NCBI GenBank assembly: GCA_002633005.1
Contig: NMRA01000535.1
Span: forward strand, 154,848 to 195,896
Direction: 5' to 3'
DNA length: 41,049 nucleotides
From: Phoronis australis
Taxonomy: Eukaryota; Animalia; Phoronida
Part shown: positions 16,301 through 40,478 of the stretch, in pieces
Layout: the number at the start of each line of letters is the position of its first letter
Position numbering within the stretch: the stretch's first letter is position 1
Made by a program: the position numbers and the translations under genes
The notes under the pieces: generated by a model
Seen by the model: the letters and a program-made list of their open reading frames with translations, nothing else
Told to the model about the DNA's origin: nothing
The model's database searches: none

Positions 16301-19300
16301 TGCTGCATTTCTGTTCATAAATAAATATAATCGTGTATCACATAATTCCCTTTTCTTTAGTGAAAGCCTATGAAACAAACTAAATTAGTGAACGTCTGTT
16401 CATAAATAAATATGATCTTGTATCACATAGTTTCCTTTTCTTTAGTGAAAGCCTATGAAACAAACTAAATTTGTGAACTTCTGTTCATAAATAAATGTGA
16501 TCTTGTATCACAGAGTTCCCTTTCTTTACAGCCTACTACACAAAAACTGTAACAACTTGGGGTCATACCTGAGATGGAGAGCTAGCTCGCTTCTCCATTT
16601 TCTTTTTGTCTTTCTTGTCTTTTTCTTCCTTTTTGGGCAGCCATCGGTATGGATTACGTACCTTTGGTTCTTCGTCCTCTGGTTGTCTGCAACAAGATTT
16701 CAACAACATGCGGTCCAATGTCAACTGGTGTGAGAATGCATTAAATAAAATAAATGTCTTTTGCAACATACAGAAGAAAATATTCAGTGTGGGACACAGA
16801 ACAGCAGATAACAAAGATATTAGTTTTATGAAATTTTTACTCTGTGTTTATCATGGTTTTTATGCTGCGACTGTTATCAAGCAGAAATATGGGAATTTGC
16901 AGAAATTTGAAAATGTAAGTCAAGAACAACAATTTTAGTAAATATTTCCATCCCAAATCCAAGAATTTTTACCTAATGAATTACTTTAGAAAGTAAGCTG
17001 ATGAGGGGAATAGACACGGTGAAAAGCAGCCTAAATTTAGAAAACAAGGGCTTTACTAGTCTCACTCTGCACTTGGTGAGTAGATGAAGAGCACAATAAA
17101 TGTTGTTAAGGACAGTCAGTTACTCACTCTGCACTTGATGAGCAATACATTTGTTAAGGACGGTCAGCTACACCTCAGAAATTAAAGCGTTGACAATTCT
17201 TTTAATACAAATTCACCCGATAACAAATATGAATTATTGTTTCATATATGCACAAGAATTTTAAAGACTTTATCAGTGACCTGATGTGCATGTATGAATC
17301 ATTGATTCTGACAAGCATGCATTGTTTGATGATTTCACACTATGACAAGGGACAATACGAATTCCCAACATCCCAGATTCCGAACTCCCGTTTTGCAGAG
17401 GTAGAACAACTGAACTGATGGCAAATACTGCAAACCAGATAAGTTACTGTGGTATTCTGTTGCTATTTAAAGACAGCACAACTTAATGGAAGACTTATCA
17501 AAGGTCCTACCTGAAATAGCCGAGTACTCATATTAGATTATATTTCAAGGGACGTCACAAACAAGCATGAATAGTGACACACTGTAAAATTCCTCCATTT
17601 TTCTAAAAAAATCCCAACATACAGTAGACGAGACACTTACTCTTCCTCCTCTTCTTGTGGCTCCTCCTGTTGTTTCGTCTCTGAAGGTGAGAACACAGAC
17701 CTTCTGGATTCAGGTGACCCCTCCGAGCTGTCTTCAGCATCTGAGTCTATGTTCATCTCTGGGTCAAGAATGTCAACGACATCTTCGAATATCTAATGAA
17801 GAACAACATCAGTTTTAACTGGGGGAAAAACAATGTTTGCTTGAAAATCAATATTTTGTAAACCAGCCATGTAACTTGAAAACTAAACATCCCCCTGCTC
17901 ATCTGAGAGTAAGGGATGAGACAACACTTTAACAATTCTCAGTACTTCTTAATTCAATGAGTCCGAGTTGAAAATTAAAATTAACTAGTTAATAGTTGTA
18001 GGTTTAGAAACTTGAAATATACCAGAAGAAGCAAACACCAGAGGGCACCAGCGCTATACTGCATCAGAGCCAATGGTAAACTGTCATTGTATTCATTACT
18101 TCAAGAGATTGCTACAAACACACTCCTTGATTGGTGTAATATTAGTTCAATATGTGGAACTTTAAGGAAGTCAAAAGCTAAGAATACCCCAACATTTGTC
18201 AAGCATTCAACCATATTAAAAAAACTCCAGCAACAGTGTACGTGATATCAATGCATCTAATGTCACTTAATGATTATTTGTCTTATAGCAAAATGTTTGG
18301 CCAGAAATAGGGACTATAAACAGCTAGACAAGTAATCTATGACAATAATTGTGGGATTACTGAAAACACTTACATCGGGGGGCATACATTCTTCCAAATG
18401 TGGATAGAGTGCAAGAGGGTGTTGTGTGAGTCCATACTCAATCTCATTGATGTGATCTCGTCTCTGTTGCTGCAATGGTGTTGTTCTTGAGAAACATACT
18501 TCTTCTTTAGTGAATCTCTTTCTGTTCAAGTTGGCTTTTTGCTCCCTCATGCGGAGACTTTCCGAACTACCAGTAATGTTGGGCTTCAGACCTTTAGTAC
18601 CCTGTAAATTATAACTGTGGATTTCATTTTTGCTTTCAGCGTTATTGTTATGGCTTAAAATACAGTGACTGGGTGAAAATAATCAAATATAACAAGCACA
18701 AGGAGAAAACAAGATGGAAGCCAAATTGTAACAGATTATGAACAAAACCAGACTCAAGACAGCTGAGCGCTAAATTGAGAAATATAATTGTAAATGATGA
18801 GAACCTGAAATGAATTATTTAACAGGTTGAACAACTCTTTGTTCAAATATAAAACCAGCTGCTCACCATGACATGTTTGCTGCCATGAAAGATTTAGAAA
18901 ATGTAACTCAAGGATATTAAAATTAAAGGAATCCAGGACCAAAACACAAGAAACAATATTAAGGCCTTTCCCTGTTTTCAGTGGACAACTTAGTATTAGA
19001 ACACGTCTTAAAACTGCTAAGTCTCTCAGATTATAACCACTGCACTGACAACCTGAACTTTTGGAAGACACACTAACACTATCAACAAATAGCAAACCTT
19101 TACGAATATCCCATCATCACCAATAGGGGGCGGTAAACCATCTCTGAAGTCATCTAGACCTGTCTTTATGAATGACCAGTTGTCAGCTATCAACATTTTA
19201 GATGTATCTGTAGGCTTGAGAGACTTGATATAATGTGTCTGTATTCTTTCTTTATACCTGTTATAAAAACATCGAATGTGAATTAAGACATGTGATTTAA

Positions 19301-20611
19301 TAGGTACTATTCTGAGAAATAAAAAACTCACTTTATTTAGGGTTTTCAACTAGTATATAAAAAGTTAAACCACATTAGTTTCCGACATGTAAGCCCCCCC
19401 ACATACACCACAAAACAAATGAATTGGTGATAATGATTACACGTAAAACTCAATACATTGAGTCACATGTGGCGTTTCTAGGACGCACATAGTTTGCTGC
19501 AATCTTTGGAACGACTATAATTGGTAAGTAAAAAGCCACCAACACAATGTGCTAGTGATATCTTGAAGCAATGTTATGGTCATGCGATATCTTTAAAGCT
19601 CAGCCTAGTATATGACATTTTGCTGATCATAACTGATACTATGACTTTAAATGTGACTGGTGTAGCAAAAGAGAAAGTCCACTGGACTCAACTTCTTATC
19701 TGCACATATTTTGAAACAAACACAGCTTTGTTTTTTAGTGACTAACCAGAGCAAACTTTTAATTACACTACACTAGGGTGGCCTATGAATGGATTTTCTC
19801 TTAGCTAGACTTGGTTTAGTGGGTAAATTCGGAAGTGTGCTTATGTATGTGTGAACTCAGAATAAAACAATCAGGCAAAATCTTTTGTTCGTTGTATAAA
19901 GAATTTTTGTAATTATATTGACCTCATGCATCATCATCCATTTTCTCCTTTTCCAGAATTTGTGTCACAGATTCAGAGCAATTTGTGAATGGTTAATCAT
20001 TTCTTGTTTGGTGAATAAGATCGCCAATAGTTGAAAAAGCCAATAAGGGTTGAATAAAATTTAAATCATTTTATTAACAAGTGATTTGCTAAATTAGTGC
20101 AGTGCAACTTTTTATCAACGTGAATGTGCTGATTATTTGAGAGAATATACCAAGTTTCCTTGGGTATTCTAAGTTCACACATACATGATATTGAGACCAA
20201 GCAGAAAGTTTCCAAGTCAGGAGTGAGGAGCCGTCTGCACTCTTTCTTTGATTGAAACGTTTAAAAACAGTCACTAGCCTACTGTCTGATATCCGCGGTA
20301 GGAATCGAACTTCTAATCTAATAAGGAAAAATGAAGTTTAATCCATATGTCCAAACACCCAAACCAGTGCTTCCTAAACCCAGCAGACGCAATTACCACT
20401 TACAAATATCGACCGGCAAGCAATGAAGTATTCCCTCCCTGACCCTGGCTTTATTCAAGTCGAGTGGGACTCGATGTCTGATGTCTCTGATGATTATCGC
20501 AGGTAAATCGTAATTTATGGTGACGACGAAATATACTCACCATGGTTTCGGCCGAATTTTCTTGTCGGTCTTAGTGTTTACTAACGCTAAGTCATATTTA
20601 AGCTCGGCCAT
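13326..20611 (-). CDS. FAM47E: FAM47 family (FAM47E-like) protein, 454 aa; exons 20611-20541, 19257-19098, 18601-18374, 17792-17641, 16686-16569, 15985-15731, 15133-14969, 13971-13894, 13463-13326
   Basis: All introns are GT-AG with consistent phases; total 1365 nt. The motifs PWYKERIQTHY, GLDDFRDGLP, LTQHPLALYPHLEECMPPD.FEDVVDILDPE, EFCDWV..LG...NIEE.TI.SLF and KFKYGAWYLSPKSWKK are characteristic of FAM47 proteins, from recall of the family. Confidence 0.88.
14515..14587. repeat. 24-bp tandem repeat x3
   Basis: CAGACCAGTGTGAACACAGTCAAA is repeated. Confidence 0.85.
15291..15377. repeat. 28-bp tandem repeat x3
   Basis: TGGTTGCATCATTTCAGTACACTGCTAA is repeated. Confidence 0.85.
16310..16528. 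repeat. 85-bp tandem repeat, about 2.5 copies
   Basis: Units starting TCTGTTCATAAATAAAT lie at 16310, 16395 and 16480. Confidence 0.85.
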
Positions 20612-20978
20612 GACAGTTACTCTGTCAAATAAATGTTCGAGAGTAACTCGCACACAGAAACTACTCCACACTTCTCCAGCAATGGCCGAAGTTGTTTACA
20701 CCGATTTACTCATGTGTTTTTAGATGCGCGTAAAACATAAAACGTAAGCATTGAGAGTAAATTATATGAAAATGGCTTTTAAACTTATTGTTGTGTACAA
20801 AAAATGCAACTAAAATTATCTGTCACAGTGGTAAAGATGCTGAAAAGTTTAATTTCTTGCATATTTTTTTCTGTATTCTGGTACAAATATCACTCCACAT
20901 TGGAACTACGTTGTCATGGACGTCATTTCCTAAATAAGAACTCTTTCGAGTTGAAGGAATGATTATTCTACATTGAAA
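20612..20978. promoter_or_regulatory. Bidirectional promoter region between the FAM47-like and PUB-domain genes
   Basis: Divergent ATGs lie 367 bp apart. Motifs: TGTTTAC forkhead (20693-20699), X-box-like GTTGTCATGGAC (20910-20921) overlapping GACGTCA (20919-20925), and YY1-type AAAATGGCG at the + strand start codon. Confidence 0.7.
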
Positions 20979-23900
20979 ATGGCGACCTCCTCGGTTTGTT
21001 TATCATCGTCAGATTCCAGATTCCAATGTTTCTTTTACTCTTATCAGGATTATAATTTTTGTCAAATTCAATTTTCGGTGTCATGTGTCACTGTTGACTA
21101 AGTGTAGATTCAACAGAAAGTGGTTTATGTCGCAATTTTGTTTATAGTTTAATTGTGAATTTCCGGTTCCGTGTGTCCTACAAACCTGTGCGTGAACTTG
21201 GAATCCTGCTTAATCTCAAGATCGCCTATGCGTGAACTTGGAATTGGCAGTTTAAGGCACAAAGATGAAATTTTTGTTCTGTGAATTTTTTTGTAATTAT
21301 TGGCCTCACGATCAACCATTTTCTCCTTTACCGCTGAACCGGAAGGGCCGCTGAATATTCATGTAGCGCCCTTATTGGCCATTACTGCTCGAACAAACAT
21401 TTCGATAACGGAAGTATTTGTTCGAGTTGTAAGGAGTGAAACACACTGACAACCGCCTTAAGGTGTCCCTCTATGTGCAAAAGGTATTTATAACAACGTG
21501 ACTTTCATGCGTAAGCCAGTGCGAGGCATAATTGCCATAATTCGCCGAAAAGCTTCCGGCGTATGGAGCGCCTATAGGAGCTGCATCGCCTCTGGCCGGG
21601 CCAACATAGGCGATGGTCATTGCCTACTGAACGGGAGGAATACGTGAATGGCTAATCGATTATTATTTGGTGAAACTGATCGCCCGTAGTTGAAAAGGTT
21701 GGTTAAAATTGACATTATTTTATTCCAATGTAACTTGATATAGTGCAGTGCGAATTTTTACGAACATGAACGTGATTATTTGAGTAAACTTGTCAAGTTT
21801 CCTCGCGTATTCCAAGTTCATGTAACACCTCACTTCTTGAAACTAAGCAGGATTCCAAGTTCATGTACAGCAGTTCTACTACTCTAGTCTCTAAGAGTGC
21901 GGTGGCCTGATGAATTTTGCGGTACATCAGGCGTGTTTTGGCCACAAGGCCGGGGCCATTACAGTAATCACTACTAAGTACTAATACTGGTAGAGACAGT
22001 GACCACCATCTCCAGCTGACTAGAGAAGGTTTAGCTCTTATTGCGAGGAGTATAGACAATGGTAGCAATTACATCGCCCTGGATGCCACAGGCATACAGG
22101 AGCGATAGTATATTTCCACAAAAAGTTAAGAATTTCAAATTATAGGAAATAAAATCAAATGAAACATGTATATATGCGCATAGAGTTATAATTAACACAT
22201 ACCATAAGTCTGGAGAGGATCGGTCAAGACAATTTGAACAAATTGATGAAAATCTGTCGCAGTTTGCTCAAGTTTCTGTTATTGGGTGCCATTTTGAGGA
22301 TGTTACGTGAAATCACGCATGTTGAAGAATAAAACGTCCAATGGACACAAATCTTACAGATTTCACCTGATACCTTCCCATGAGATTTTGCAAGTGTCGC
22401 GTGCCAGTGTCACGCGCTTTGCTCGGTTTCGTGGTAGCCTTTGCCTAACTCACATGACTCAGTTGAAATACTTAGTGGTTATCGCGCGTGTGGTGAAAAA
22501 GTTAACCGTAACCAAAAAAGTGGGGTTGGAATTCTTCGCCAAAGTCACCTTAGTTATCGTAACTAAGCTTCATCGAAGATATGTGTAGAAGTAGAACTAC
22601 CACTGAATAAAGTACCGTATTCGCCCTAATAACCGTCTAGGGTGCTTAGAAAAATTCGTTTCAGGGGGGTGCTTATTCTAACCCAAGGCGGTTGAAACCC
22701 GGTCTCCGAAACAGGTGAAATCAGAAGCTAAGATTCATCATATTTACGCTCTGTGACGTATCTGTAACCTACGACAGACTTTCTAGAAAATTGTGGTGCA
22801 TTGCTATCAAACTTTGCTGTTAAATTACGATCACAAAATTGTGCGTAAGTCCCACGGCAAAAACTCGCTGACTGACTGGATCGCTTGTCGATACCTGAAT
22901 GCTTGAATAAAAATATAGTTTCAACTCTAGCAAATTAACTGAAATTCTTAAGTTTTCCAGATAGCATCTCTAAGATTTTTAAGCTCCTGTAGAGTCGGAA
23001 TTAACGTCAGGTTAAGTCCAAATCTGTGCTAGATTGGACCGTCTATGATCGTAGGCCTACCTGGTAACATGAGAAAAAATCTCTGGATATGCGTTTACTA
23101 CGTAAAGTTAGTTAAGGTGATATGATAAACTCTATAACAGCAATTTGACTTGAGATCACCAAAAACCATGCACTCATCGTTCAATCAATATCTGTAATAC
23201 CTGTGGTAAGCTATTTCGATGTTTTCGTAAATTCAGACATAAAAGTCTTGATCCACACAGTTTTTTTAGTTAAAAAGCTCACTATAAGGGAGCTGTTTTT
23301 GTAAACTTAGATGTTAAAGCCTTGTTCTACGTATTTTTGTAAAAACCGCACTGTGTGTGGGGGAGGGGGTTACTGGTGAATGGGGGTTGGGGGTAACGTG
23401 TCATTAGAATTATGGATGTCCTGGAGTATTGGGAACCCCATTTTGGAACCCTATTTTGGAAATCCTGGATAAAACCCTGCATCATACCACCTGCTGCACA
23501 CAGTGTTAAAAATGGCGAGTTTCCGCTTTTGGGAACTGAACGAGGGGCTGCTCAAAAAAAGTTTGATAACAGGAGTATTTCTTCACTCTGGTTTCCTGTG
23601 TTTGATGCCTCCAGTCTGGATGTGGAATTTTCTACAGTGACTTACATGTTACAGGGGTCACAGATTTCAAGAACCAGTTTGATGCCTGTTATTTAGTGGA
23701 AAAGTGGTTCTCAAAATGTGGGATCTTTGTGACTATTACCACATTTTCTAGTAGTAAATTTATTAAAGCAATGCTTTGTTGTTGCTGTTTTTATTGTTGT
23801 GTTGTTTGCAACAGCATCATTACGGTTAGATCTTTGCGGGATATCTGCAGGGAAATGTGGGACTCTGATTTTGCATCAATTGAAATGAACTAGTTAAACC

Positions 23901-26900
23901 AGAGAACGCACACCTATGTTTCCAGCAAACAGATATCTAGAAAATTGTAAATCTCACTAGTCCCAATACCTTGTAGTAAATTTCTCATGTGGAAGGCGGT
24001 CATCGAACTCGAGTCAGCGACATCAGAGAGTCGAGCATCCAAACTGTTCAGCCAAGCAACAATACAAGCCATTTAAAGACGAGGCTTTATATGAATTTAC
24101 ATCATACACAGATGTCATGTGTGACAACGTCTCTAACATTTTAATGGACAATCATCTACAGTATTCCGATATAGCAGTGACTGTTGAAATGAGCTCCGTT
24201 GTTACTTGCTAGATGGTAAAATGTTCATCGCCAATGTGAGATTTTACAGTCGTTTGTATTCTGTGCCACACCTAGGTAGTGGCAAATCCTAATCCATCAT
24301 GTACACCAGATTTTCTGCAAATTAGCTTAACCCTGGCTAAACTATCAAAGTCATGTTACCATGTCATTGTGTACCTTTCGAATGTTGGTGCCTGGATACA
24401 TTGGGAGGCAATTGTTGTCTTAAAATCCTTCCGGCTTGAACCAATAACCAAGCAATGAGCACGTTTTTTCAAACAGTTCTTTATTGTTAATGAAATTCAA
24501 GATTGCCCTCCAACTGCCAATGTGCTCACGGTCAAATGAAAAGGAGCACAGTGTTACACTTACAGGGATGTTACCTACCTGTCATCTACACAGAGAGGAG
24601 TCAGCAAAAATGAAGGACCTGTCTATGCCGTGCCTTGACTCACCATCAAACCATCAAACGATCTCTGCACAGTGGCATTACCTTTGCAAATATCAATGGG
24701 TTGCGACTGGTTTAACAAGTCAATGGAATTAAAATTCCAATTACTGTTTCATCTCTACCTCTTCAACGAAATATTAGAGTGATCGATAACACAACAAGTT
24801 ACTTTTGTTTTCTAAGTCCAATAAATAGTTCATTGTTCAATGTCGGACTTTGTTCTTCAATTGCAGGGTGGAGACACAAAAGAAATCCTATCAGTTTACC
24901 TGCAGTTGCTGACGGGGGAACTTGATAGTGTAGCATTATCAGCGTGTTTACATACACTCCAGAAAATATTGAGGTAAGAATCCGTACAAAAGTTTTACAG
25001 ATTAGCAATTCATTCTTTTAAATTCTATCATATATTGTTGCATGTTAAATTAGTACAAAAGATTATTCAGTTCTTATCATAATGGTATTTGCAGTGGATG
25101 TCCAGTAAATATTTCTAGTTTGGGACAGTCTCTAAAGTTTAGCTGAATTTTTTTTTGTTCTGAAGATTGAGATATGGACTATATCGGTGTTCACTGCTTT
25201 TTGTGTCAACAGAGTGAACTTGAACTTCACACGGAATCATTTACCAACAAGTCTGATTAACTTTTTAGTCTGTTCAGAAGATCTCTTAACAGGGAAATCA
25301 TCCGTTTTGATGTTACTTTAAGTGAAAATGCAGATATTGGTTGATACCTCATAGAGACATTTTATTTTTCCATGATGTTCCCTTCATGTACGTCTGCCCA
25401 ACGGCTTGGCAATGAGCCCACCTCTTGGTTCTACATTCCCCTCCAGTGAGCCCACCTCTTGGTTCTATATTCACTTCCATTGAACAAACACAACCTGACC
25501 TGCACAGACCATGTTCAGTATCAAGTAGGACATTATGTTTCCCACAGATGGTAAATATACAGCAGGAAAATCATTGTTATTACAAGAAATTGTTTCTGAG
25601 ATAACCGAGGGTTTGTATTTTAGTAACATAACTTCATTTAAACAAAACATAATGAATTTTGAGTGTTTCAATGCAGTAATATCAAGAAGATCTTGTACGG
25701 CACAAAACGAAAGTACCATAGTCAGGTGGCTATATAATTCTGTTTACTGCAAAAACAACACTAACAGGAAATAACTATTTGGATAGAAAAATTCTGATTA
25801 CAGAATGGCCACAGAATGACCACCTTACCAAGTGAACTTTATTGTAAAATCTCCTTCTCGCTCATCAGGTGAGACTACTTCCGCCCAATCCCAAGCAGCT
25901 GTCGTTATGACGATCATTTTACTCAGAATACTTTTGGCTTGTACTGTAGTTATTTAATATCTTGATTGTGGACATGTGTGTGTGCATTATGTGTTACTGT
26001 TTATTTAAGTAATGTTACCAAGAGTAGTGACAAGAAGTTTCGGCACATGAAGAAAGACAACAAGACGTTCCATTGTAAAGTATGGCAGTATGAGGCAGCA
26101 CACCAGTTCCTGTTGGCCACTGGATGGGCACAGGTTAGGAGTTTTGTCTATCCAGGCCTTCCATTTTCGTTGTTTTTCCAGTTGGAAACATTGTAACGAA
26201 TATAAGGTGTAATAGCATTTGAATTTAGCAAAAAAATCATCTAACTTCTGGTAATATCCCTTTTTTAACTGAATTGGACATTTCCATTGGAATTCGCATA
26301 TTTCAGTAGATGAGTACTGTTCTAAATTTCTTTAGATAAATTGCTGAAAAGAAAATAGTCAATCGAACATGTTTGAGCGCGAGGCTGACTCATTCATTAT
26401 CTGCGTCGCGGACTTTGTCAAGTTTCAGTGACTTATGGTGATTCTTCACTTGTTTAGCTCACAACATGGCTGACAAGTGATAGTTAACACACAACATGGC
26501 TGACAAGTGATAGTTAACAATAAGATATGGCTGACAAGTGATATTCTATTTTTTCAAATTTCTCCTCAAAATAAAGTTTAAGAAAATGTAGTCCAAGTTT
26601 GCAATAAGATGTTTGTTGCTTTTCTAGGATGAAAGCTGTGTTTATTTGCTGCCTGACAACAATGTGGAGTTGGCTCTAAGCCTGGTCAACCATTATATCA
26701 GGTAAAGCTTCTTAAAGTCCAAGAAGCACACGTTAGCCTTTATTACATGGTTAGAGGATGTTATAAGGATCCAAGAAGTACCTACCCCTTAACTAATACA
26801 CAATCCGTAATCGAATAAAGGTTAAATAAACGCGCCACTCACGATTCGGACCCGAAGAACACACCGCCATTTTGAACTTACCGCGAACCCGGAAGTACAT

Positions 26901-29900
26901 GTACAATTCATTTAGGAACCCAGGCTTAGTATACGCTGTCTGTGCGACTGCAGCAATGTCTGTTACCAGCCCATAAAATAATCAACAGTGCGCCTTAACA
27001 TTAATAAATTGTATCGAAATTGCTGACGAAATGTGGCGAATAAATTTTGAGAGAAATTATTTTGCCGTACTTGGGCCTGCAGCCGATTGAACCCATTGCG
27101 GACCGAGACCAGACACTGGGAAACGGTAGGCATGGGGCTTGCAAGCTGTTTTGTCAATGTAAAAGGTTCAAATTATAAATGACGTATACATACGAGGTAG
27201 TTTCAGACACTTGCATAAAATTACGGGCTGCTTAGCCCTGTGTCACACTGCTGCGGCAGCCCTTAGGTTAGCTAGCCTGCCAGCTACCATCAGTATGAAG
27301 ACCATTGTCAACATACAGGCTGGTTAGTCCTGTGTCACACTGCTGCGACAGCCCTTAGGTTAGCTAGCCTGCCAGCTACCATCAGTATAAAGACTATCGT
27401 CAAAATACAGCCAAGGCTAAGCCTACCTGGTCCCTGGCCACAGCGCTTGCTCAAACAAGGTTTATTTAGAACTTGTTTTGGGGTCTTCTGGCGAACTGTC
27501 CCTAGTTGTCGGCTTTCAAGATTGATTTGCACAGACTGCATGAGCGCACTGACCAAGTGAAGCCTAAAAAATGGGGGGCTCGAATTTTTGAGAATGTGTA
27601 CCTTTTACTATAAGATTTACTGGGTATGTATAGAGGTATGAATTGCGGACGCCAAATTTTGATACTTCCTGCCTTCTGGTGGACTTCTGTCTCGTGTTCT
27701 ACTTTTTTCGAGTTCTCATGCTTCTGACTGAGGCAGACCTTTTTCCATTTCTCTAAATAGGGGGCTCATTAGAGCACATAATTATGTATATGACAAGTGC
27801 AGTACAATATCAATTTTTTATGTATTAAGCAGTGAGTTTGAAGGAAGTGACCTTACAAATGAACCACATCGATAATTGTAATTTGAGTGGAGGTGGCAAT
27901 CTCAATGACAGAATTGCAAGAACCCATGAAATAAAAAACTTCCAGTGAACTTGGTTTTCAATTATATGATGTTTTTTTAAATTTATGTATATTGTATTTA
28001 TAGTAAACACAAGGCATCAAGAAATGTTGCCTGAAGATGCTAGTTTCTTTTTTGTAGCAACATTGTGTCAAAATGTATCATGGTTAAATCTTCACAAATT
28101 ACAAAGTATCCTGCTGAACATGCCTGTCAGTTCAGCAAATGCTGCCATCTTGTCAGTGCCACTGGAAATGAGACCAACGGGAATTGTGAGCAAATTCATA
28201 ACTTACTAAGTAACAACTGCGAGGCTGAAATTTGGTGAAAACTGTTGAATTGTGCAGAATACTGAGTAAAGATATATGTCTCACTAAATTTCACTGTAAA
28301 ATGTTGGTGAAAAAAATTTATACAAAGTTTTAAACTCGTAACTTAACACTCTGTCGTCCAAGATGGCCGACCCGATCCAAACTAAGTGACCCAAATTTCA
28401 CCACAAAAATTGCAATAACTTTCCACTGCTTGCCCCGATTTTGATACTTTCTCGATTTTTACTGAGTAGGATGCATTATCTTTCCGATGATAGCAAAGTA
28501 TTTTTTCAAAATGAAAAAAAATTCAAAACAAAAAAATTGGGTCGACTACCCTACATAACAGGAACTAAACACCAATGCCATTTTAACATTGATAATAAAC
28601 AAAAGTATGCGTAACATTACAAAAAAATTTAACGACCACTAACTACGAACTATAAATACACTTTCTATACAAGCGAATCACGAAATATTACTAATAAAAC
28701 AAAATAATGAAGTCTTTTCGAGCAAGCGGTTGCACATTTAGTTACAAGGAAAAAATAGCGGCGTTCAGGACAAATTCCTGAACTGACGAGCCGGAAATGT
28801 CGGTAATGAAATAACCGATGACAGCCAGTAATTATCTGCTCACAGAGAAGGGTCAAATGCAGGTAAGAAAATGCTTGTGGCAGGAAAGGCGAAAAGACTA
28901 TAACGAAAGGGTATCGAAAATAAGATTTTATTTATTAACTATTTTCGGATACTGGAGCCTCATTGGCATTTTAAGATAAGGACTTTAACACTTGATGGTA
29001 GTGTTGTAACTGATTTGATGACGCGTCACTGGCACTGTCACTTTAGAAAAAGTTTGAATCAAAATCTATTCTAAGACTGAAATCGATTCTGTGATACTGC
29101 TGAAAAAATTCACATAACTTATGCAAAGTCTAGCAGTCGCTCGCAAATCTTTGTCTTGTATTGCTAAAAGTCACGTAAACAGGGTGAAGTTTGCTTGGCC
29201 ACTAGCAAATCTTTTTCTGGTAGTGGAGGAATATGATATGTTGTTTGCTAGGGAAACAAAAAATGTGGTATTTGAGTGTCTTACTCTCAAAATGTTGTTT
29301 GATGAGTACCTGGCTATACTTATAATGTGGTATTTGAGTGTCTTACTCTCAAAATGTTGTTTGATGAGTACCTGGCTATACTTGTAATTAGTTGTGAACA
29401 TGAACATCCTTACCAGTAATGTCACTTAAAAACTGATTCAGAAGCGAGCCTTAAATTGTAAATTATTTATGAAAAATTCTGATTCCTACCACTGTTTGAT
29501 GGTTGGCCTTTTCTTATTATTTATTCAATTATTTAAGCGGCTTTCATTAGCACAACGTGTGGAATTTTGGTGATGCATATTTTTAGCCAAAGTATTTGTA
29601 ATCGAACACAGATGTGAGATGGAAACTAATTTTTAGTTTTGATTGCAGACATTACATGTAATTCTTTCTTCTTAGTGTCGTTATTATGCCTTGGTGGTTT
29701 GTGCTCTTTCGACACTCTTCACAAAACTGCCACTAAATACCCCTTTCTTTTCAACTAAAACACATCAATTCGAGCTAAATCTCAACAAAATCTTTATAGG
29801 TGTCAGAGTTATGACTTCCTGTGCAGACGGGCATCATTACTACAAATTTTCAACTAAACTGCCATACGTAATATTGACATTTCTGTGGACGTCTTGTCTA

Positions 29901-32900
29901 ATTTATTTTGAAACCTACCTAGTGTGCTCTAATCACCTTCACCTGTTACAGTTTACACTGCCCTCCTGAGGTGACCTCACCTGCTCACAGCAGCCGCAAT
30001 ATGGCTGGACCAAGTTGGAGCTCTGATGAGGTAATGAGTTTAAAGTTATATTCCATCTTGTGTGACTGGCTGAAAAACAAATATCGAATCTTATATTATC
30101 TTATATAATTGGTCTTTTTTAGTAAAATTCCTTTCCATGATAGGATTCTATTTCCAACAAAAACATGAAAACCTTTATTCTCTGTGATGTGAGTTGGTAG
30201 TAGAATCCTGACTTGGTATGAGACCGATTTTATAAGAATAAAAGTCTTAAGGATATCTCAACCTTGACACAAAAAATTGGCCATTTTTGCAATATTTTAC
30301 ATACGTCTAGCAAAATACCTTATCTTCATTCTCAGGGAACTTCAGGTACAAAATATGTAGCGAGAAAAAAAAAAAGATTTTAGCAGAACCATTTTGGAAG
30401 CACACAACCACATGGAAATTTGTTTACTATTTATTTGAGGTCAAACGTTACGGGGCTGTCCCTCAAATCGAATATCCTACCAGGCACAGAGCACCTAAGT
30501 ATGTACCCACAGTCCTTTCATTCAGCGAGTCACCATAATGTTGAGTCAACAACATGCCCATAGGATAGAACATAGTTTAGATCCTGAAGGAGTTGTGTAT
30601 CTGCATGCACACGGCCATTGAGAACATGTGCTAGAAGTCGTCTTGCGCCTCTGTGAGTTTGTGTTCATGAACACAGCAAGTTGTGAAAAGAGATAAATCC
30701 TCACCCAAATTCCTTAATTTGAAAGGTAATTTGACATTTTGGTGTTTCGATCTCATGCTCACAATGCGCTTGAACCACTGACTTAATTTCTGTTATCCAT
30801 TTCGTACTAGGGTTTTATATCAATCTCCAGGCGCCTGGTGTGTATAACAATGAACTGTTGACCTACTGTAAAGTGGACCACAATGCACCAGCTTGACCCA
30901 CTTAATATGTTGGCTCCGACTGCATGACCTTGTTGGATTCGATGCATTGGGAATTGGATTGGCTGATAAAACATTTTTGTGATAATTAAGTTATGCACTG
31001 CAAATTCAGTTGACATTGTGTGTGAATGTTGAAATAATGAACAGGGCTAAAGGATGTTAAGGTTTTATCATAGACTATCTAAAGGATGTTAAGGTTATAT
31101 CATAGACTATCTAAAGGATGTTAAGGTTATATCATAGACTATCTAAAGGATGTTAAGGTTATATCATAGACTATCTAAAGGATGTTAAGGTTATATCATA
31201 GTACATGCACCGCCAACTACATATACTTTCAATGGACAGAATCTGTGGTCTTTTGCACAAGCCGTTGCCTCATTTTCACTAGCGACACCTGGCCAAATTA
31301 TCTGGTGATATTTCTGGCGAGAACGTCATCTGCTAATCATGGCCGGCTGCTGTGTGGTCGGGTGGTAGTAGCATTGCTAAAAGTACTCACGATACCAACA
31401 GTTCTGACTACTTGTTGGAAGACTTTGAACAGCGTTTCAATGTCCAAATTATAATTACTTTTCGTTGTACTGACGCGAGAATTTCCCGTCACAATTCACT
31501 AACCGGAAACTGCACCAAATAATTTAGGAGAGTGGCGCCTCCTCTAGGTTAGTACACAAGAAAATCTCGGAGTTGCGAATCTGTTGTCTTTAATCTATGG
31601 TTATATTGACCAAAAACAAGATTTCACTAAATAATTATTTAACCAATAAAAGTCTTTGAGATCACATCTTGCCACATAATCGGCTTTTTCTCGACTTCGG
31701 CAAATCAGTTAAATTTGAACTTATGAACACGAGTTCTCGAAAACAGGGTGATAGATTTCGCTGAAACTTTCCAAACTTGATGCTTATTCATCAATCTCAA
31801 AAACACTGTTAAGATTTTTGCATAACGTAACGAAGACGAATACCACTTCAGATCTATTTTTTACAAAAGTATGTTGTTTCGCAAGTTGATTTGTCATAGA
31901 AATCAATGAAAAGACTAATCGAAAACTTCTAACACCATTTTTAAGGTTACTGGTGAAGTTTTCATTTGAAAAATGTTTCATTGAAATCAACCAAGAGGTT
32001 ATTTTGCTATGAATGTACCTTTCTTAAGCATGAATTTTTGACTTAAGTAAGGTTCTATCGTATTATTAATAAATACACATAAATATAAAACGTATTTGTG
32101 TATTACCTGATCTTTTTTCTTTCAGAAAATATGTACTTTTATTTGATGACTAAGCCTATTTTTTGATAAAATAGAATGGAGGCCACTAAATAAGGTTTGG
32201 GATAACCTTAATTTGAATTTTGTTATTAAACAACTGAACATCGTAAAACATTTTAGTTTTTGACGAGACAGATTGATTATATCAAAAATGGCGTTTTATA
32301 TTTCAACCCAATTAAAAATTATGGGTCGTGGGTTGGAGAAATAAATTGGGCAGTGGGTAAGAAATAAAAATGCCTTCCCCCGCCCATACATTTTTACTGG
32401 AACAGTCCTTAATTAATAGCCAGTATTTCTCATATATTCCTTTTCATTTAATTAGCCTAGTTTCCATGGCAGAGAATGTATAGTAAATTTTGAAATTTTT
32501 AAAACAGAAATCTTGCCTTGTATATACATGTAATACATGACATTGTATATTCATGTATATATATAATACTTGTATATACATGTATATAATTATACTTTCT
32601 TTAGACCATAATTGCTTTGAGGGGAAATTGTCATAAACTATTCCCACTTAAAATAGAGTCCTCGAGCAAGTTGCTTCACAAACAGTCCTACTTTTTTGAT
32701 AAGGTGTTATTGCTACAAATTTTGAAGCTGTAAGAAATCTAGTGCTATACAAAAAACCTGAGTGATATGGTTTGAGGGAAAATTGCTGTGTCTTGTAAGA
32801 ATTTTGCCAAGCCAAGCTTGCCTGTTGTTGGTTGCCTTTTCAATTCGGTGTTCATGGTTTTCCAGTTGTTAGTCTTTTTGTTATGCAGCGTAGTGAAAAG

Positions 32901-35900
32901 GAAAAACTAATCGCTGAAGAGCGGAAGAAAATGTTGGCGCAACTGAAAAGAGAAAAGGAGGAAAAGAGAAGAATTAGTGAACAGGTACTGCCCATTGATT
33001 GGTTGACTGTTAATAAAGGAGGTACTGCCTATTGTTTGATTGACTGTTAATAGGGGAGGTACTGCCCATTGATTGGTTGATTGTTGATAACGGAGGTACT
33101 GCCCATTGTTTGGTCAACTGTTGATAAAGGAGATATTGCCCATTGATTGGTTGACTGTTGATAAGGGAGATTTGGTCGAACTTTTTTTAATTAGTTGTTT
33201 TGCATGATTAGTAGTGGATTTTGAAACAACGATTGTGTTGGCTATTAATACCGAACATGTATTGGAAAGATAGAAGATTCTCTTGAAATATGCTACTTCA
33301 ATTGAAGGCAGAATAAGTTTGATACGACTTTAAAGTTTTTTTTATTAATGTTTATTACGAAATCATCAGAATACAATGAATATACATAACCCAGAAAGTG
33401 CCAAGAGGCATGATTATGTCTTGGTTAAAAAATACAAAGAAGTCTATATACAATTATCATACACAAATACATTAATTAAAAAACTGATGTTAGGATTACA
33501 ATGATATATGATTACGAAATTCAATGTAAATAAATCATTTTCATACACATTCTATTCACTCACACAAAGAGATTTAATATTATAAAGAAATTTTGATACT
33601 ATTTCGAATAAACCTTATTTTCATTAGGGTTGAGTTCTAGACATTCATATAGAAAAAATTAATTTTGTTGTACGCGGAATTTCAGAATATTTTTTGTAAA
33701 CATTGGGGTATTGTTTGATTGTCTGGAAAAAATGTACCTTCTGCATCTTGCATACCTCACAAGCAAAGAAGACGTGCAGGAACTCAGAGGCGAAATACTA
33801 TTAAAATTATGTCTAAATTTCTCATTCTTTAGGAATAGACCACATCTTGATCTGTATAGGGTTATTTCATAGTTGTGAGGAAGTTGGAATGATGTCAATG
33901 GGACTGGCAAGTCTTGAGTAGTGGTATGCATTTTAAAGTTATTTTTGAGAGTGACAATTGAAGTGCTTTCTTTTATTTTGGATGGTAAGGAATTCCAGTT
34001 GTCAATACAATTTAATATCGTTGACCTCCTGAAGGCTTGGCTGAGGGAAGATGGAATAGTGTGCATATTACTTTGCCGCAGTCCTGGTCTCGTGCTTGGT
34101 CTTTTGTAGGAATCAAAGAGAATTTTGTTTGAATAGTTGTTTATGTTGGTTAAGACTTTGAATGTATACATGGACAGGTGGAGTTTACGATGGGTTGCTA
34201 GTTTGCTCCAGTTGAGACTATTTAGAACCTTGATTGTGTTGGACCCTTTGTATGCTCCTGTTATGGCTAAGGCTGCTTGGTATTGTAGTCTTTCTAATTG
34301 AAGAAGTATGCCAGCATTTCCAGATTGGTAGATTATGTCACAGTAATCTAGATGTGCAAGTGCAAAAGTCTTGGACAGAGTTTCAAGATGCATGGAGTTG
34401 AGATGACGAGAGACAATTCTAGTTGGATTAATTAATTTTTGTACTTTATGAACGAGTTTGCAACAATGAGGAGTAAATGTAAGCTTATGGTCTAGTAGCA
34501 CGCCAAGATGTTTGTGCGTGAACTTATTGGGAATAACTTCCCCATTGAGTGATAATTCCAAGGTTTTAAGTTTTGTCGTCTTTTAGATGTCAAAAATACC
34601 ACTCTGAGCTCCACCAGTTGTCACAATGTCACCTGTGAGCTCCACCAGTTGTCACAATGTCATGTCACCTGTGAGCTCTACCAGTGGTCACAACGTCACC
34701 TGTGATCTCCACCACTGGTCACAATGCCACTTGTGAGCTCCACCAGTGGTCACAATGCCACCTGTGAGATCCACCACTGGTCACAATGCCACCTGTGAGC
34801 TTCTCCAGTGGTCACAATGCCACCTGTGAGCTTCTCCATTGGTCACAATGCCACCTGTGAGCTCCTCCATTGGTCACAATGCCACCTGTGAGCTCCACCA
34901 CTTGTCATAATGCGGGCGTAGAACAGCAGGTTCACAAACTACTGAAACATAATACTCATCTCATCACGAGAGTAGTGAAATACTCGAGTTGTGTGCAGGC
35001 AATTAACACTCTCATCTAGTGGTATTGTTAAAGGTGTAAACTGGTGGTAAACGTCGTAGTAGTATCAAAAAATTGTATTGAATGTCTTGTGTTCCAGATT
35101 AAAAAGGATCGGCAGGATACAAATACCAGAGAAGTGAAGGACTCGGTAAGTGATAAACATTTTAAGCGAACACTCAAGAGATGTATTTTCCTTATTGTTG
35201 AACATTAACTTCTCCATACTCTGTAATATACTGCACAAGCCTAAAGTATTCAGACAAAATGACCCTGAATTTCCCCGTCATGACAGCTGGGCAGAAACTG
35301 AATTCATGGTCATAGTAGTCTCCCTCTTGACAGACTTAATTAAGTGGAAAGTTAGTAAGGTGACTAAGCCATTCTTTAATTAGAGTTTTGCCATCCTAAT
35401 TGTTATTACCAGAAATTTATGCACAAGTAGCAGTCATTACGGGACAACACTACTTTTGTCTTGTACTGTAACATTACATTGCTCGACAGTACTTCTTCTG
35501 TGAACTGTGTTTGTGTCTGAGTAAGTTAGCGCTGATCTGTAGCGTATGTATTACAGCATGCTCAGCACCTGCACGGAGGAGGAAAGATGACAAAGTTTGA
35601 AGACATCGGAGTGAACCTTAACAAAGGGGTAAGCATTGGCAGGGAATGTAGTCAGTTGCTACTGAAGTTCTGTACAGTGAATTGGCTGCTCGCTGGTTGC
35701 TGTCATTGTGTCAAATACTGACTTTAGGAGATAAAAAATTCTATCTTCTATTTTTGCTTAAATTTTATTATGTTTGGGCATTTTCCCACTTCACTATCTA
35801 ATGGACATTATTCACGCAGTCACCATTTTAAAAATGAGCCTCTCTTTAGGTTTAAAAAACAATGCAATTGAGACATAAATATAAGGAGGCATGCAAGAAA

Positions 35901-36863
35901 TCATGTTTTGCACTGTGATTAAGCACAGAATGCGTAGTTTTTTAACTTGCGTGATTAAGGCACGTATGAAACATTTGTTCCTGTCCAATTGGTATTATGC
36001 ATCACAGCTCTGATCTATTATAAATACTTAAATCTTTGTATGTGTATGTTATTCCTTCATGGAAGTGACCAGATAATTATCATATTTAGTATTTGGTGTA
36101 GGAATGTTGTCTTGGAATCTGAGTATTAAGCACAACACGTTAGCACAGACACGTTTTAGAATATTAACTTAGTCAGTATTTTTGCAAGAGCCCAGAGAAA
36201 TGTATCAATTTTCAAGACATTTAAATTAATCTACTTGACTCATGACCATAATAAAAATAGTGGCGTGGTCACTCATTGAAGACATTGAGGAACTTACAGA
36301 ACTTGAAATGGATCTGTGCAGAAATGTATGTCAATCGTTAGTACAAACATGTCATGTATGATAGCCCAACAGTCTTGGGACTCATTTCAGACTAGATGGG
36401 CGACTTGCACTATTGTACAAAATTGTTAATGGAATAGTGACAGTTGACGAATCCCACTCTCTTGTCTGTATTACACACTTTCAAGACAATTTTAATCACA
36501 AAGCATATCACATCCTTCATAGCAGACACAGTTTCATTTGCATGTTTCCTGTCATTATTGGGCAGTGGAATGAACTGAGGAACAATTTGGTCTCAGCACC
36601 AACTGTTGAGACATTCAGGTAAAGATTGTTTCAAATGTCATCTCATCTCCTTTTATCCTGCACTGTACAGTAATTCTCTAATTCTTGGACGTGACCAGTC
36701 CTTTTATCCTGCATTGTACAGTAATTCTCTGATTCTTGGACGTGACCAATCCTTTTACATCAATGTCTTCAACAATGATTGAAGAGTTCAGATGTAGTGG
36801 AAGAAGACTAACAAGTTATAATGATAATTACTTCCCATTTGTTTTCAGGGTGGATGAGGTTAA
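20979..36863 (+). CDS. PUB-domain protein with coiled coil and C-terminal GGG-Sec-G (predicted selenoprotein, 209 aa); exons 20979-20993, 24867-24973, 26010-26133, 26628-26701, 29952-30030, 32889-32984, 35098-35145, 35557-35628, 36849-36863
   Basis: Nine exons join in frame through GT-AG junctions (630 nt), giving MATSSGGDTKEILSVYLQLLTGELDSVALSACLHTLQKILSNVTKSSDKKFRHMKKDNKTFHCKVWQYEAAHQFLLATGWAQDESCVYLLPDNNVELALSLVNHYISLHCPPEVTSPAHSSRNMAGPSWSSDERSEKEKLIAEERKKMLAQLKREKEEKRRISEQIKKDRQDTNTREVKDSHAQHLHGGGKMTKFEDIGVNLNKGGG(U)G*. The pattern L.KIL.N......KFR....N..F...V......FL.A.GW is the PUB signature. Exons 1 and 5 are the least certain. Confidence 0.8.
21186..21870. mobile_element. Non-autonomous DNA transposon (MITE-like) with about 36-bp terminal inverted repeats
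   Basis: CTGTGCGTGAACTTGGAATCCTGCTTAATCTCAAGA (21186-21221) is the reverse complement, with a few mismatches, of TCTTGAAACTAAGCAGGATTCCAAGTTCATGTACAG (21835-21870). Subterminal copies of TGAACTTGGAAT occur on both sides. A diverged relative lies at about 19845-20220. Confidence 0.75.
23990..24056 (-). mobile_element. Degenerate tRNA-derived SINE head
   Basis: The minus strand reads TGGCTGAACAGTTTGG...GAGTTCGATGACC, with A/B-box-like motifs at tRNA spacing. Confidence 0.4.
27236..27410. repeat. About 92-bp tandem duplication
   Basis: CCTGTGTCACACTGCTGCG...GCTACCATCAGTAT...ATACAG is present twice. Confidence 0.85.
31047..31201. repeat. 32-bp minisatellite, about 5 copies
   Basis: CTAAAGGATGTTAAGGTTATATCATAGACTAT is repeated. 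Confidence 0.95.
32983..33170. repeat. 37-bp minisatellite x5 beginning at the exon 6 splice donor
   Basis: AGGTACTGCCCATTGATTGGTTGACTGTTAATAAAGG is repeated; AG|GTACTG occurs with GT at 32985, 33022, 33059 and 33096. Confidence 0.9.
33336..34600 (-). mobile_element. 5'-truncated non-LTR retrotransposon (CR1/L2-group LINE), C-terminal part of reverse-transcriptase ORF2
   Basis: ORF 33659-34561 contains HKHLGVLLDHKLTF..H, LDYCDIIY, LERLQYQAALAITGA, LNW..L..R and WNSLP, typical of the post-RT thumb region. A short A-rich tail lies at 33336-33345. The element is antisense within intron 6 of the PUB gene. Confidence 0.88.
34605..34912. repeat. 31-bp minisatellite (GTGAGCTCCACCAGTGGTCACAATGCCACCT), about 10 copies
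   Basis: Tandem units read directly; they abut the 5' truncation point of the LINE. Confidence 0.95.
36390..36622 (+). mobile_element. Degenerate LINE ORF2 C-terminal remnant
   Basis: Translates RLALLYKIVNG...FPVIIGQWNEL...VSAPTVETFR, resembling the RL..LYKI..G...FFPRTI..WN.LP......S...FK end of LINE ORF2. Confidence 0.6.
36849..36863 (+). other. Terminal coding exon GGT GGA TGA GGT TAA with predicted selenocysteine codon (TGA 36855-36857)
   Basis: Strong acceptor (ttcccatttgttttcag) in phase 0 with the donor at 35629; an in-frame TGA is followed one codon later by TAA. Confidence 0.8.
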
Positions 36864-38284
36864 ATGCACATCGGCCACTGTCCATGTTCAGATACCAATT
36901 GGCTCCACACCTTATGAATAATGGTTACTATGGAATATTTTTACTAAAATGATTTCTGTATATTTATAGTGTCATTCTTTATTCATTCTTTTTTCTTACA
37001 TTGAAATTTGATAAAGACTTAATCTGGCTCTTAAATTTCATGAGTTGTGTGTACTCGTTTTAGTCATACTAACTACAAATGCCTTTAATCGACATTTAGT
37101 TTTATTATAGTCTCAGTTTTGTCCATTTGTTATCAGTTCTTACAAAACCAAAATATATGACATAAATTGTTTGGACATATATTTTTGGGACCTTTCGTTT
37201 AATTTTATTGTGAAAGAAGTTAAGGCAATGCTCTTGTCATATTTTGTTTCAGCACTGGTTAGAACCAGCTTAATAGCATATTATGCGATTACACATTTGT
37301 GGGTGCATATTGTTTTTTATTGCATTTCTGCTATTACTAGGTAGTTCAAGCATGTGTTCTGTAGGTGTTAGTACCTTTCAAAAATGCAAGATATCTTGAC
37401 ATGATGTATTACAAGGGAAGCACCTGATCAACACTAGCTTCTAAGATATCTTGATGTAATGTATCACCATGTATTGCCATGGAAGAACATGATTGCATCA
37501 TTCGCGACAGAGTTGATGCTTGTCAGTCTTCTGGTCTTTACTTCCATATACCTTTCAAGGCCATTACTGCATATGTCTGAGTCTACCTTTAGTATCTTCA
37601 TGAAACAGGCTGGTAATGAGTGGAAACTGGCGACTTCAGTCAGTCTAAGAGTAAATCACTTCACAAATGTCGCAGGCAGGGCCTGGACGAACAATAAGAA
37701 TCGGTGCAAGATAACCACCAATTCATGTGTAAATTAAGTCATGGTATTGGGGTTTGAAACTGGGAAATCTGAACTGGGTTAGTCATGTTAGGTCTTCAGT
37801 CACTGGCCAGAGACCAAAGCAAATGTAGCATTTTATGGTGTTTACTGTTGGCTTGTGGATATTATATGCTGGAGGTTTTGTGAAGGTAACGGATTGAGTG
37901 AACCTGGTCTCTGAAGATTTGTGCTGCTAATTTATGGCCCAACTTTGTCTATTATTTAAATTATTACAAACTTATGCAATTTCTGTGCTGATTAAAACAA
38001 CTCCTTGCAGACCCTGGCCCAGGGTCTAATCCCAGAATCGAGACTTAGCAAATCACACTGCACGATTACAGTACAAAGTCAGCCTACTCGGTCAACTTTT
38101 GAGTTGTGTTTTGCACATAGAGATTAGACACCAGGCTCAGATGGTTAGCCAGCCATTTTGACAAGTTATATTTGGTAGAAACAATAATTTTATCCTTGAG
38201 AGAGAACAATTTTGTCATTGAGTTGTAGCTATGTCTTCCTTCAAACACAGTTATGGTGCTAGTTCTACTATAGTAAATATATTT

Positions 38285-38364
38285 GCTTTGGTCAAATGGC
38301 CATGATGACAATTTTGCAGGAAAACATTGGAACTGCAGAATCCGATAGAAAGTGACTAGGAAGC
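38285..38364 (+). promoter_or_regulatory. SECIS element (eukaryotic, type I-like) in the 3' UTR of the PUB-domain gene
   Basis: Helix I is GCTTTGGTCA / TGACTAGGAAGC. The core is A-TGAC (38305-38309) / CGAT (38343-38346), giving tandem G.A pairs. Helix II is ATTTTGCAG / CTGCAGAAT (9 bp). Apical AAAA lies at 38321-38324, 11 nt after the core. Confidence 0.82.
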
Positions 38365-38485: not shown

Positions 38486-38491
38486 AATAAA
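38486..38491 (+). promoter_or_regulatory. Candidate polyadenylation signal of the PUB-domain gene (second AATAAA at 38605-38610)
   Basis: First canonical AATAAA I find after the stop codon, about 120 nt downstream of the SECIS. Confidence 0.6.
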
Positions 38492-39447
38492 ACTAAATGC
38501 ATTTGATGAGTGCTGTTTACGGCGCAACAGCGTAAACCAGAAATTGTCGTCTTGTGATAAAACGTTAAATGTGCAGCTGTTGAGATCACATATAAATATA
38601 TTTCAATAAAAAACCATTCCAGCAACAGGTCACTTATTCTAAGACACAAAAATTAAGACAATGACTCAAATTCAATGCGGTTGTCAAGACAAAAATATGA
38701 AAGTGTGAAATCAATTTCGAAAATACCAAATGACTACTTTTTGATATCCAAAGGCAATTTTAAAATTTTTAAAAGCGAATCTGCCGACCCAAAAAAATTG
38801 TGATTTCAAATTCTTAACAGTAGTAACATACCATAAGCATGAAAACAATGACCACTTATAATTGCATCTAACAAATCATGAGACGGAAAATTACACAACA
38901 GTCATCAAGTGTACTTTTAGTAACCCTTGAAATTAGTGAATTTAACTGGTTAAGTCACCAGCCTTGAGCCAATGGAATATCTGACAGACAATGGCCAGAA
39001 TTGATGACTTGTAACAAAAATTGCAAAAGTAAATGGATTTTGTTGTTTTACAGCTCTTGTCAAAGCCAATAACTTCAATAAGTTTATCCCATCCGACAAT
39101 AATACCCAAAATGCATTTTCAGCTGCAAAAGCAATATTGTCTTTAAAAATTTAAGGGGCTATTTGTCCTTCAGGCTTGACATCTGAAAAAGTAGATACAC
39201 AATTCAGTCACTGCACGTATTTTTTCTTGAAAAGCAGAAGAAAGAAATTTGCAATAAATGCAGGTGCCTGTTTTTGATGGAAAACTTTAGAAATTTACTT
39301 TTATCAAATTAATGGTCATTTAAAAATTGGAGAAAGAACTTGCTGAAATGTAATTTGTAATGTTCAGAATGACATCTATAGGGTATGAGTGCGTAATAAG
39401 AACACAGTCATGGATCATGACGCATCGGACAGAGAAGCTTTTGGAGT

Positions 39448-40100: not shown

Positions 40101-40134
40101 CTAGCAAGTGGATTAGATGGAGCAATAATATTAT

Positions 40135-40478
40135 TAATATACAGGGTGTCATCAAAATGTAGTGATAATACTAGTAATATACAGGGTGTCACCAAAATGT
40201 AGCAATAATACTAGTAATATACAGGGTGTCACCAAAATGTAGCAATAATACTAGTAATATACAGGGTGTCATCAAAATGTAGTAATAATACTGATAATAT
40301 ACAGGGTGTCATCAAAATGTAGTAATAATACCAGTAATATACAGGGTGTCACCAAAATGTAGCAATAGTACCACAAATATACAGAGTGTCACCAAAATGA
40401 AACGAAAATACCAGTAATATACAGGGTGTCACCAAAATGTAGCGATAATACCAGTAATATACAGGGTGTCACCAAAAT
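40135..40478. repeat. 40-bp minisatellite (TAATATACAGGGTGTCACCAAAATGTAGCAATAATACTAG), about 8.5 copies
   Basis: Tandem units read directly, within a WDR19 intron. Confidence 0.95.

Follow-up and report, generated by a model that had tools for sequence, protein, structure and literature searches.

A 41,049-nt stretch of the genome of the phoronid Phoronis australis (contig NMRA01000535.1, positions 154,848 to 195,896; hereafter the window) carries on its plus strand a nine-exon gene for a small PUB-domain protein predicted to be soluble. Its in-frame UGA, separated from the final stop by a single codon, is very probably read as selenocysteine (Sec), giving a Gly-Gly-Sec-Gly (G-G-U-G) end. The codon recurs at the aligned position in all three relatives that were read as DNA, a hairpin shaped like a Sec insertion sequence (SECIS) lies downstream of it in each gene, and RNA reads confirm the last exon, so the proposal of a selenoprotein, put forward in a preliminary description of the bare sequence, has gained strong support. 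The gene is real, spliced and expressed. Taken as a whole, we read the product as a Sec-tipped soluble PUB protein that would attach itself to p97/Cdc48 and so carry a reactive selenol to p97 or its substrates, and we consider this reading somewhat more probable than its alternatives taken together.

The gene, its transcript and the UGA codon

The nine exons are separated by introns that all follow the GT..AG rule and join in frame into 630 nt. With read-through of the TGA at 36855-36857, the spliced product would comprise 209 residues. The features of the gene are as follows (window coordinates).

20979..20993, plus strand: exon 1, coding part; ATG and four codons, GT donor; from the sequence only, junction to exon 2 inferred
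24867..24973, plus strand: exon 2; PUB helices 1-2; family profile match E 0.025
26010..26133, plus strand: exon 3; core of the PUB domain, including its pocket residues; PF09409 E 1.2e-7
26628..26701, plus strand: exon 4; end of the PUB domain
29952..30030, plus strand: exon 5; variable linker
32889..32984, plus strand: exon 6; long charged helix, a helix being predicted in the chiton relative
35098..35145, plus strand: exon 7; helix end, conserved QI.ADR region
35557..35628, plus strand: exon 8; conserved tail motif F-x-D-[IV]-G-[VI]-[DN]-[LV]
36849..36863, plus strand: exon 9, coding part; GGT GGA TGA GGT TAA
36855..36857, plus strand: in-frame TGA, the putative Sec codon; residue 208 of 209, with a same-position TGA in relatives L001, L002 and L003
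36864..38530 (end approximate), plus strand: 3' untranslated region (UTR), unspliced; continuous stranded coverage, no joints
38296..38356, plus strand: SECIS-shaped element; AUGA core at 38305, 9-pair helix II, GA at 38344-38345, weak helix I
38486..38491, plus strand: first AATAAA after the stop; a second AATAAA lies at 38605

The gene model was compared with reads of four runs carrying the same species label and coming from two studies. Run X1 is a contig set whose RNA status was guessed, and X2-X4 are stranded RNA-seq runs of one study, about 18-19% of each being read. Seven of the eight junctions, from exon 2-3 to exon 8-9, were seen in reads of the four runs, the first mate lying on the minus strand throughout, as for a plus-strand mRNA. 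The junction reads in X2/X3/X4 were distributed as follows.

Junction 2-3: 25/8/43, also in an X1 contig
Junction 3-4: 10/15/31
Junction 4-5: 13/9/38
Junction 5-6: 19/17/39
Junction 6-7: 16/12/26
Junction 7-8: 10/3/29
Junction 8-9: 0/4/22, also in an X1 contig

The X1 contig has an in-frame insertion of 21 nt in the region of the exon 5-6 junction. The exon 1-2 junction was absent among the 15 of 60 joints listed; therefore exon 1 and the first five residues are a prediction, and another in-frame ATG lies 27 nt upstream of the exon 2 acceptor. Stranded coverage extended from exon 9 across the hairpin as far as about 38470 without a gap or a joint, and by about 38530 hardly any read depth was left. 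In the final five codons (36849-36863) no variant letters were listed in the four runs, at depths of about 3, 4, 23 and 49; together with the exon 8-9 junction reads, this places the in-frame UGA in the mature mRNA. The 42-nt SECIS core was likewise free of variants in the reads, which is not significant, with about one variant expected. Hence the nine in-frame exons, the 209 residues and the end GGT GGA TGA GGT TAA of the preliminary description are upheld by the sequence and by the reads. Its view of the protein as soluble agrees with a peak 19-residue hydropathy of 1.2 (-0.2 to 1.6 in the relatives), a value consistent with a protein lacking a membrane anchor.

Relatives were sought at the DNA level in metagenomes with a pattern that ended before the glycines. 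The scan yielded 263 pattern matches and four confirmed loci, three of which (L001, L002 and L003) are true relatives. The fourth, L004, was rejected as a chance match within a long GC-rich open reading frame, devoid of PUB and of a Gly-Gly tail. The coding sequence closes with GG-TGA-GGA-TAG in L001 and L003, both with proteins that match coral entries, and with GG-TGA-TAA in L002, where Sec would be the last residue. Thus, an aligned TGA is present in 3/3 relatives and, with the window, in 4/4 cases from about three independent lineages, and a Gly codon and then a second stop follow it in three of the four. L002 (2-1069) encodes a thioredoxin (WCGPC)-PUB-tail fusion and falls outside the animal rows in the tree described below.

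Two protists bear on the same codon. The annotated protein of the ciliate Blepharisma stoltei ends GGWR, that is, with Trp-Arg beyond the two glycines. B. stoltei reads UGA as Trp and has tRNA-Sec (bioRxiv 2023.10.09.561518), and therefore annotation would print W for a Sec codon. Sec use is also supported in Naegleria (PMC8038987), another host of the family.

Hairpins downstream of the UGA

The window hairpin has an AUGAC core and AAAA heading a 13-nt apical loop, which makes it type 1-like. Its core lies 1448 nt after the UGA and upstream of the first AATAAA, in agreement with the earlier estimate of about 1.4 kb. A strict SECIS descriptor gave two matches on both strands of the 41 kb, the window hairpin being the sole stable one; among shuffles of the UTR none in 1000 gave a match as stable and 71/1000 gave any match. 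With a relaxed descriptor, 4/300 shuffles of the window UTR were as stable.

In the relatives, the hairpins of L001 and L003 are of type 2 shape and lie 69 and 63 nt after the UGA, and the Rfam SECIS_1 model found both unguided in an 8-kb scan, at 26.7 and 23.3 bits. The L002 hairpin (1181-1240) has a GUGA core. The relaxed descriptor found exactly one SECIS-shaped match in the sense strand of each of the four UTRs and none in antisense, and shuffles as stable as the hairpin occurred in 1/500, 0/1000 and 1/250 for the UTRs of the three relatives. When the window, L001 and L003 are compared, pairing in helix II amounts to 93%, and 5/10 pairs have changed on both sides; as much was reached in 6-10 of 500 shuffles.

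Several observations weigh against these hairpins as SECIS elements and against Sec at the UGA. The descriptors were custom-made and were composed after the hairpins had been seen. Rfam SECIS_1 gave the window hairpin 13.1 bits (cut-off 35) and E 5.5 in a 111-nt slice, and an Rfam scan of 2.2 kb returned no SECIS match. Every SECIS_1 score stayed below 35 bits, which is a library threshold and not a biological requirement, and the L002 hairpin obtained none. As a whole the window hairpin is not unusually stable (folding z -0.89). A model built from L001 and L003 ranked it first in the window at only E 0.69, and scored a partial bacterial match above it. The covariation count comes from three sequences, two of them close, and the structure was derived from those same sequences. 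In L002, TAA directly follows the TGA; the Blepharisma W is known from the protein only, and its codon could be UGG. Finally, a Cys-ended (GG-Cys) homologue, which would complete the classic Sec/Cys pair, was missing among the 36 proteins matched by the tail profile described below. Taken alone, the window hairpin makes a modest case for a SECIS, and therefore the SECIS case rests on the relatives.

On another reading the codon is an ordinary stop: the TGA would simply terminate a protein with a functional Gly-Gly end, and the hairpins would be due to chance or serve another purpose. The weak Rfam score and z-score of the window hairpin, the lack of a Cys homologue among the 36 matches and the TAA directly behind the L002 TGA would all suit it. 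It has to reckon, however, with TGA in 4/4 DNA-level cases, with the single sense-strand SECIS-shaped match and the compensatory changes, with the Gly codon and second stop after three of the four TGAs, and with the Trp-Arg beyond the glycines of Blepharisma. We regard an ordinary stop as highly improbable. Among the three relatives read as DNA, none had TAA or TAG in place of the TGA and none had a UTR without a SECIS-shaped element, and the RNA reads of the window gene did not show a different last exon.

A small additional hairpin was noticed just after the stop of L001 (3794-3813) and of L003 (145-160), placed like the SL1 element of SELENOS; it was not clearly present in the window and is given no weight here. 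The L001 contig is intronless and may be an overlap-joined assembly. It also carries, at 278-2950, a gene with an NF-X1 zinc finger (PF01422), which runs on the minus strand and stands head to head with the PUB gene of coral type.

A protein family with a shared tail

The PUB domain is genuine. Exon 3 alone matches PF09409 at E 1.2e-7 with 32 bits, just under the cut-off of 34.3, and full-length relatives reach 52-77 bits, above it, so the Pfam comparison agrees with the domain assigned in the preliminary description. A phmmer search with exon 3 led to 16 proteins, four of them full-length relatives of 29-42% identity, all four terminating in GGG at the position of the window TGA. P0001 was dropped from this search as an immunoglobulin-like chance match. 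With exon 3 as the query, a word-based search for homologues brought up one candidate and none that scored, and among viral contigs 88 pattern matches gave no confirmed case.

A profile of the last 53 residues, containing no PUB sequence, was then used, and the 7999 best candidates were scored. It collected 36 proteins at E<=1, nine of which had been query rows and nine of which were close coral-type rows; 33/36 carry PF09409 and 33/36 have the tail motif. Three were excluded from the motif counts: P0054, without the tail motif; P0055, which shares the helix and lacks the motif; and P0024, with a divergent tail, though ending GG. The 33 motif-bearing proteins end in GG (31), WG (1) or GGWR (1). 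This shared end point is informative because the profile selects for the motif and not for the protein end, and it fits the expectation that annotation would stop at the TGA. Cys occurs within the last 25 residues of only 4/33 motif-bearing tails. The tail profile had no meaningful match in Pfam or the PDB.

The architecture across the family is PUB, long helix and conserved tail. Named animal members come from the sponge Halichondria, Nematostella, four coral genera together with Montipora, a chiton, a limpet, a mussel, two annelids and Lingula; named non-animal members come from the choanoflagellate Bicosta, Blepharisma and Naegleria, and the unicellular members include one MMETSP transcript. 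The named matches, a minimum list since most matches lack an organism name, contain no vertebrate, arthropod or nematode. In a tree of 35 rows, the cnidarian rows were grouped with strong support, and the window protein stood nearest Lingula (47% identity) among the lophotrochozoan rows, with weak support. The spliced model scored 207 bits against a family profile built without the window. Some members are named 'UBX domain-containing protein 6-like' or PNGase-like in databases. The family is old, widespread and uncharacterised, and annotation very likely drops one or two of its C-terminal residues.

Other observations concern the borders of the family and its genes. P0024 and P0055 make up a sister group whose tail differs, in that two Cys lie near the GG end of one and the other lacks the motif, and similar basidiomycete PUB clusters are shown in the Atlas, with their tails unseen; these groups may be Sec-free or Cys-using branches. 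Database proteins P0003, P0011, P0012, P0021 and P0064 break off at the window exon ends 26133, 32984 and 35628, which suggests retained introns and intron positions conserved among the animal members.

In the window, a multi-exon gene of the FAM47 family lies on the minus strand at 14840-20543 (PF14642, E 7.3e-9 on 18317-18682). It appears to start about 440 nt from the ATG of the PUB gene, head to head, an arrangement that suggests a shared promoter within the CpG-richer stretch of about 20000-22000. Intron 6 of the PUB gene contains, on the minus strand at 33659-34582, an open frame of 307 codons without a Pfam match, which we take to resemble the C-terminal part of ORF2 (open reading frame 2) of a long interspersed nuclear element (LINE) retrotransposon; reads of many diverged copies map there. 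Tandem repeats account for a further 37 rows in the window, their periods ranging from 2 to 92 nt (e.g., 1-282, 2648-3136, 34605-34913 and 40117-40478), which is ordinary for an invertebrate genome.

The putative link to p97 and the place among known selenoproteins

The best sequence matches in the PDB are the PUB domains of UBXD1 (UBXN6) and PNGase (NGLY1), at E 1.7e-13 and 6e-10. In an AlphaFold model of the chiton relative the PUB fold is confident, one helix spans 45 residues and the tail is of low confidence, and Foldseek run with this model returned the UBXD1 and PNGase PUB domains as the nearest structures (PDB 6sap, 8fcl and 2hpl). Both closest solved relatives bind p97. In the family alignment both pocket Asn are conserved and the pocket basic residue is kept. 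The K/RxxN carboxylate-binding motif reads KxxN in the window copy, its Asn being at least 90% conserved. The second pocket aromatic is always Tyr or Phe in the scored rows, and the full pocket motif is retained in three protist members. Compared with the SHP box, searched for as h(x)1-2 F/W (x)0-1 GxG x2 L with two invariant Gly, the tail motif has its aromatic, its second Gly and its Leu in register, the column counts being partly circular. On these grounds we lean towards a cytosolic p97 cofactor.

A number of results speak against binding of p97. YxxN(x)9Y is an essential pocket motif of PUB domains that bind the PUB-interacting motif (PIM) (PMC6995525; PMC4017264), and it is intact in 3/33 scored rows (33 of the 35 rows were scored). 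The first Tyr position is occupied by I in 16, L in 11, Y in 3, F in 2 and M in 1 of the 33. The window copy reads IxxN(x)8F, with Ile and Phe at the Tyr positions and a loop shorter by one residue. For UBXD1, the changes Y181A and Y194F rank with the most damaging ones, and SPATA2, with Val at the first Tyr position, binds no PIM (PMC6995525). The strict SHP pattern was found in 0/36 tails, where Asp takes the place of the first Gly, which is invariant in the SHP box (PMC5389986). The pattern of the VCP-interacting motif (VIM) was found in 1/35 rows and that of the VCP-binding motif (VBM) in 0/35. The p97 cofactor proposed in the preliminary description is plausible, with the canonical pocket motif intact in few rows and not in the window copy.

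These substitutions also suit a true selenoprotein whose PUB domain docks on another partner of the ubiquitin system, as those of SPATA2 and PNGase do on CYLD and HR23, with the selenol acting there. The loss of the first pocket Tyr in 30/33 scored rows, the example of SPATA2, the further binding surfaces that PUB domains possess (PMC6995525) and the poor yield of the SHP, VBM and VIM patterns are in its favor. The conserved Asn pair, the invariably aromatic second position, the intact motif of the three protists and the p97-binding nature of the nearest structures argue against it, and we consider such a partner rather unlikely.

Under the favored p97 reading, the protein may work in four steps. 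First, the UGA would, with high probability, be read as Sec under the control of the SECIS-shaped hairpin, giving the G-G-U-G C-terminus. Second, the PUB domain would hold the C-terminal tail of p97 through its weakened pocket, and the SHP-spaced tail motif (F..G..L) may touch the p97 N domain, a step to which we give modestly better than even chances. Third, the exposed selenol might reduce mixed disulfides in substrates to be unfolded or on p97 itself, for and against which we see equal chances; glutathionylation of Cys522 is known to inhibit the p97 ATPase (PMC5389986). Since most members lack a resolving Cys, an outside reductant would be needed for recycling, and the thioredoxin fusion of L002, a protist member, hints at thioredoxin. 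Fourth, failed Sec insertion would leave a product ending in a Gly-Gly degron, so the protein level would depend on selenium. In human cells, Gly-Gly is the KLHDC1/2 degron that clears truncated SELENOS and SELENOK (PMC7090344).

This last step could also be the main one: Sec would then serve chiefly as a selenium-controlled stability switch, read-through masking the Gly-Gly C-degron of a PUB-helix body that acts as a non-redox adaptor. Gly-Gly precedes the UGA position in 31/33 tail-bearing matches, it matches the degron of the two truncated selenoproteins, and a Cys near the end is as rare as given above. We judge such a switch improbable in view of the member fused to thioredoxin and of the need of SELENOS for Sec in its reductase and peroxidase activities in vitro (PMC7090344).

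Placed beside known systems, the protein would resemble SELENOS in its Gly-Gly-Sec-Gly end, its helical cytosolic part and its disordered C-terminus, and SELENOS is tied to p97 (PMC3628699; PMC10641518). As in truncated SELENOS and SELENOK, a shortened product would expose the GG degron (PMC7090344). Unlike these two, the window protein has no membrane helix by its hydropathy maximum of 1.2; no SelS/SelK Pfam match was found in its exons, in the relatives or in the tails; and it carries a PUB domain, a kind of domain that attaches to the other end of p97. Unlike SELENOS, the family has no common VIM and no Cys matching SELENOS Cys174 (PMC3628699). Thus, the idea that PUB replaces the membrane anchor of SelS/SelK holds as an analogy and not as a sign of descent. 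UBXN6/UBXD1 and PNGase (NGLY1) are closest in PUB sequence and fold; in contrast to them, the window protein lacks both a UBX and a transglutaminase domain, its first pocket Tyr is degenerate and its tail is unmatched in Pfam and the PDB.

A 'PUB domain-containing protein' is among the 42 algal selenoprotein families of Jiang 2020 (PMC7539508), where families without a fitting known name were named by domain. It is among the least widespread of them and stands outside the 19 families also reported in animals. The excerpts available mention it once in the discussion and once in the abbreviations, without description. Compared by name only, both are predicted Sec proteins called after PUB, and the algal family is likely the one found here. 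In algae, SELENOK, SELENOS and MSP likewise occur almost exclusively in the Sec form (PMC7539508). For invertebrates, Table 1 of Jiang 2012 (PMC3473315) lists 21 selenoprotein families in six species and no PUB protein; among these six is Nematostella, in which the PUB family is represented. Recent large surveys search known families only (PMC13134290), and the excerpts available of PMC6627142, bioRxiv 314781 and PMC13134290 with its preprint contain no passage on a PUB selenoprotein family. No report of an animal PUB selenoprotein was found in the open-access literature, which was the scope of the search. The claim of an undescribed family consequently needs narrowing: within the literature searched, the family is new for animals and was probably named once for algae.

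A further-reaching version of the p97 reading can be drawn from these data, in which an ancient, Sec-only family, going back to early eukaryotes, grips p97 from its two ends (by PUB at the C-terminal tail and by the SHP-like motif at the N domain), its selenol is the redox keeper of p97, and the protein is a soluble counterpart of SELENOS missed in all animal selenoproteomes since annotation drops two residues. We put this forward as a speculation that is probably wrong in at least some part.

New animal selenoprotein families are rare. If the PUB protein is confirmed, the selenoproteome of ancestral animals and eukaryotes would gain one family, and many database entries would turn out to miss one or two residues and to carry a wrong name, UBXN6-like or PNGase-like. 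Small and soluble, the protein lends itself to testing more readily than SELENOS and SELENOK, which are bound to the membrane. It would also be a third, non-homologous Gly-Gly-Sec tail tied to p97, which would suggest that p97-linked protein quality control has repeatedly needed selenium chemistry.

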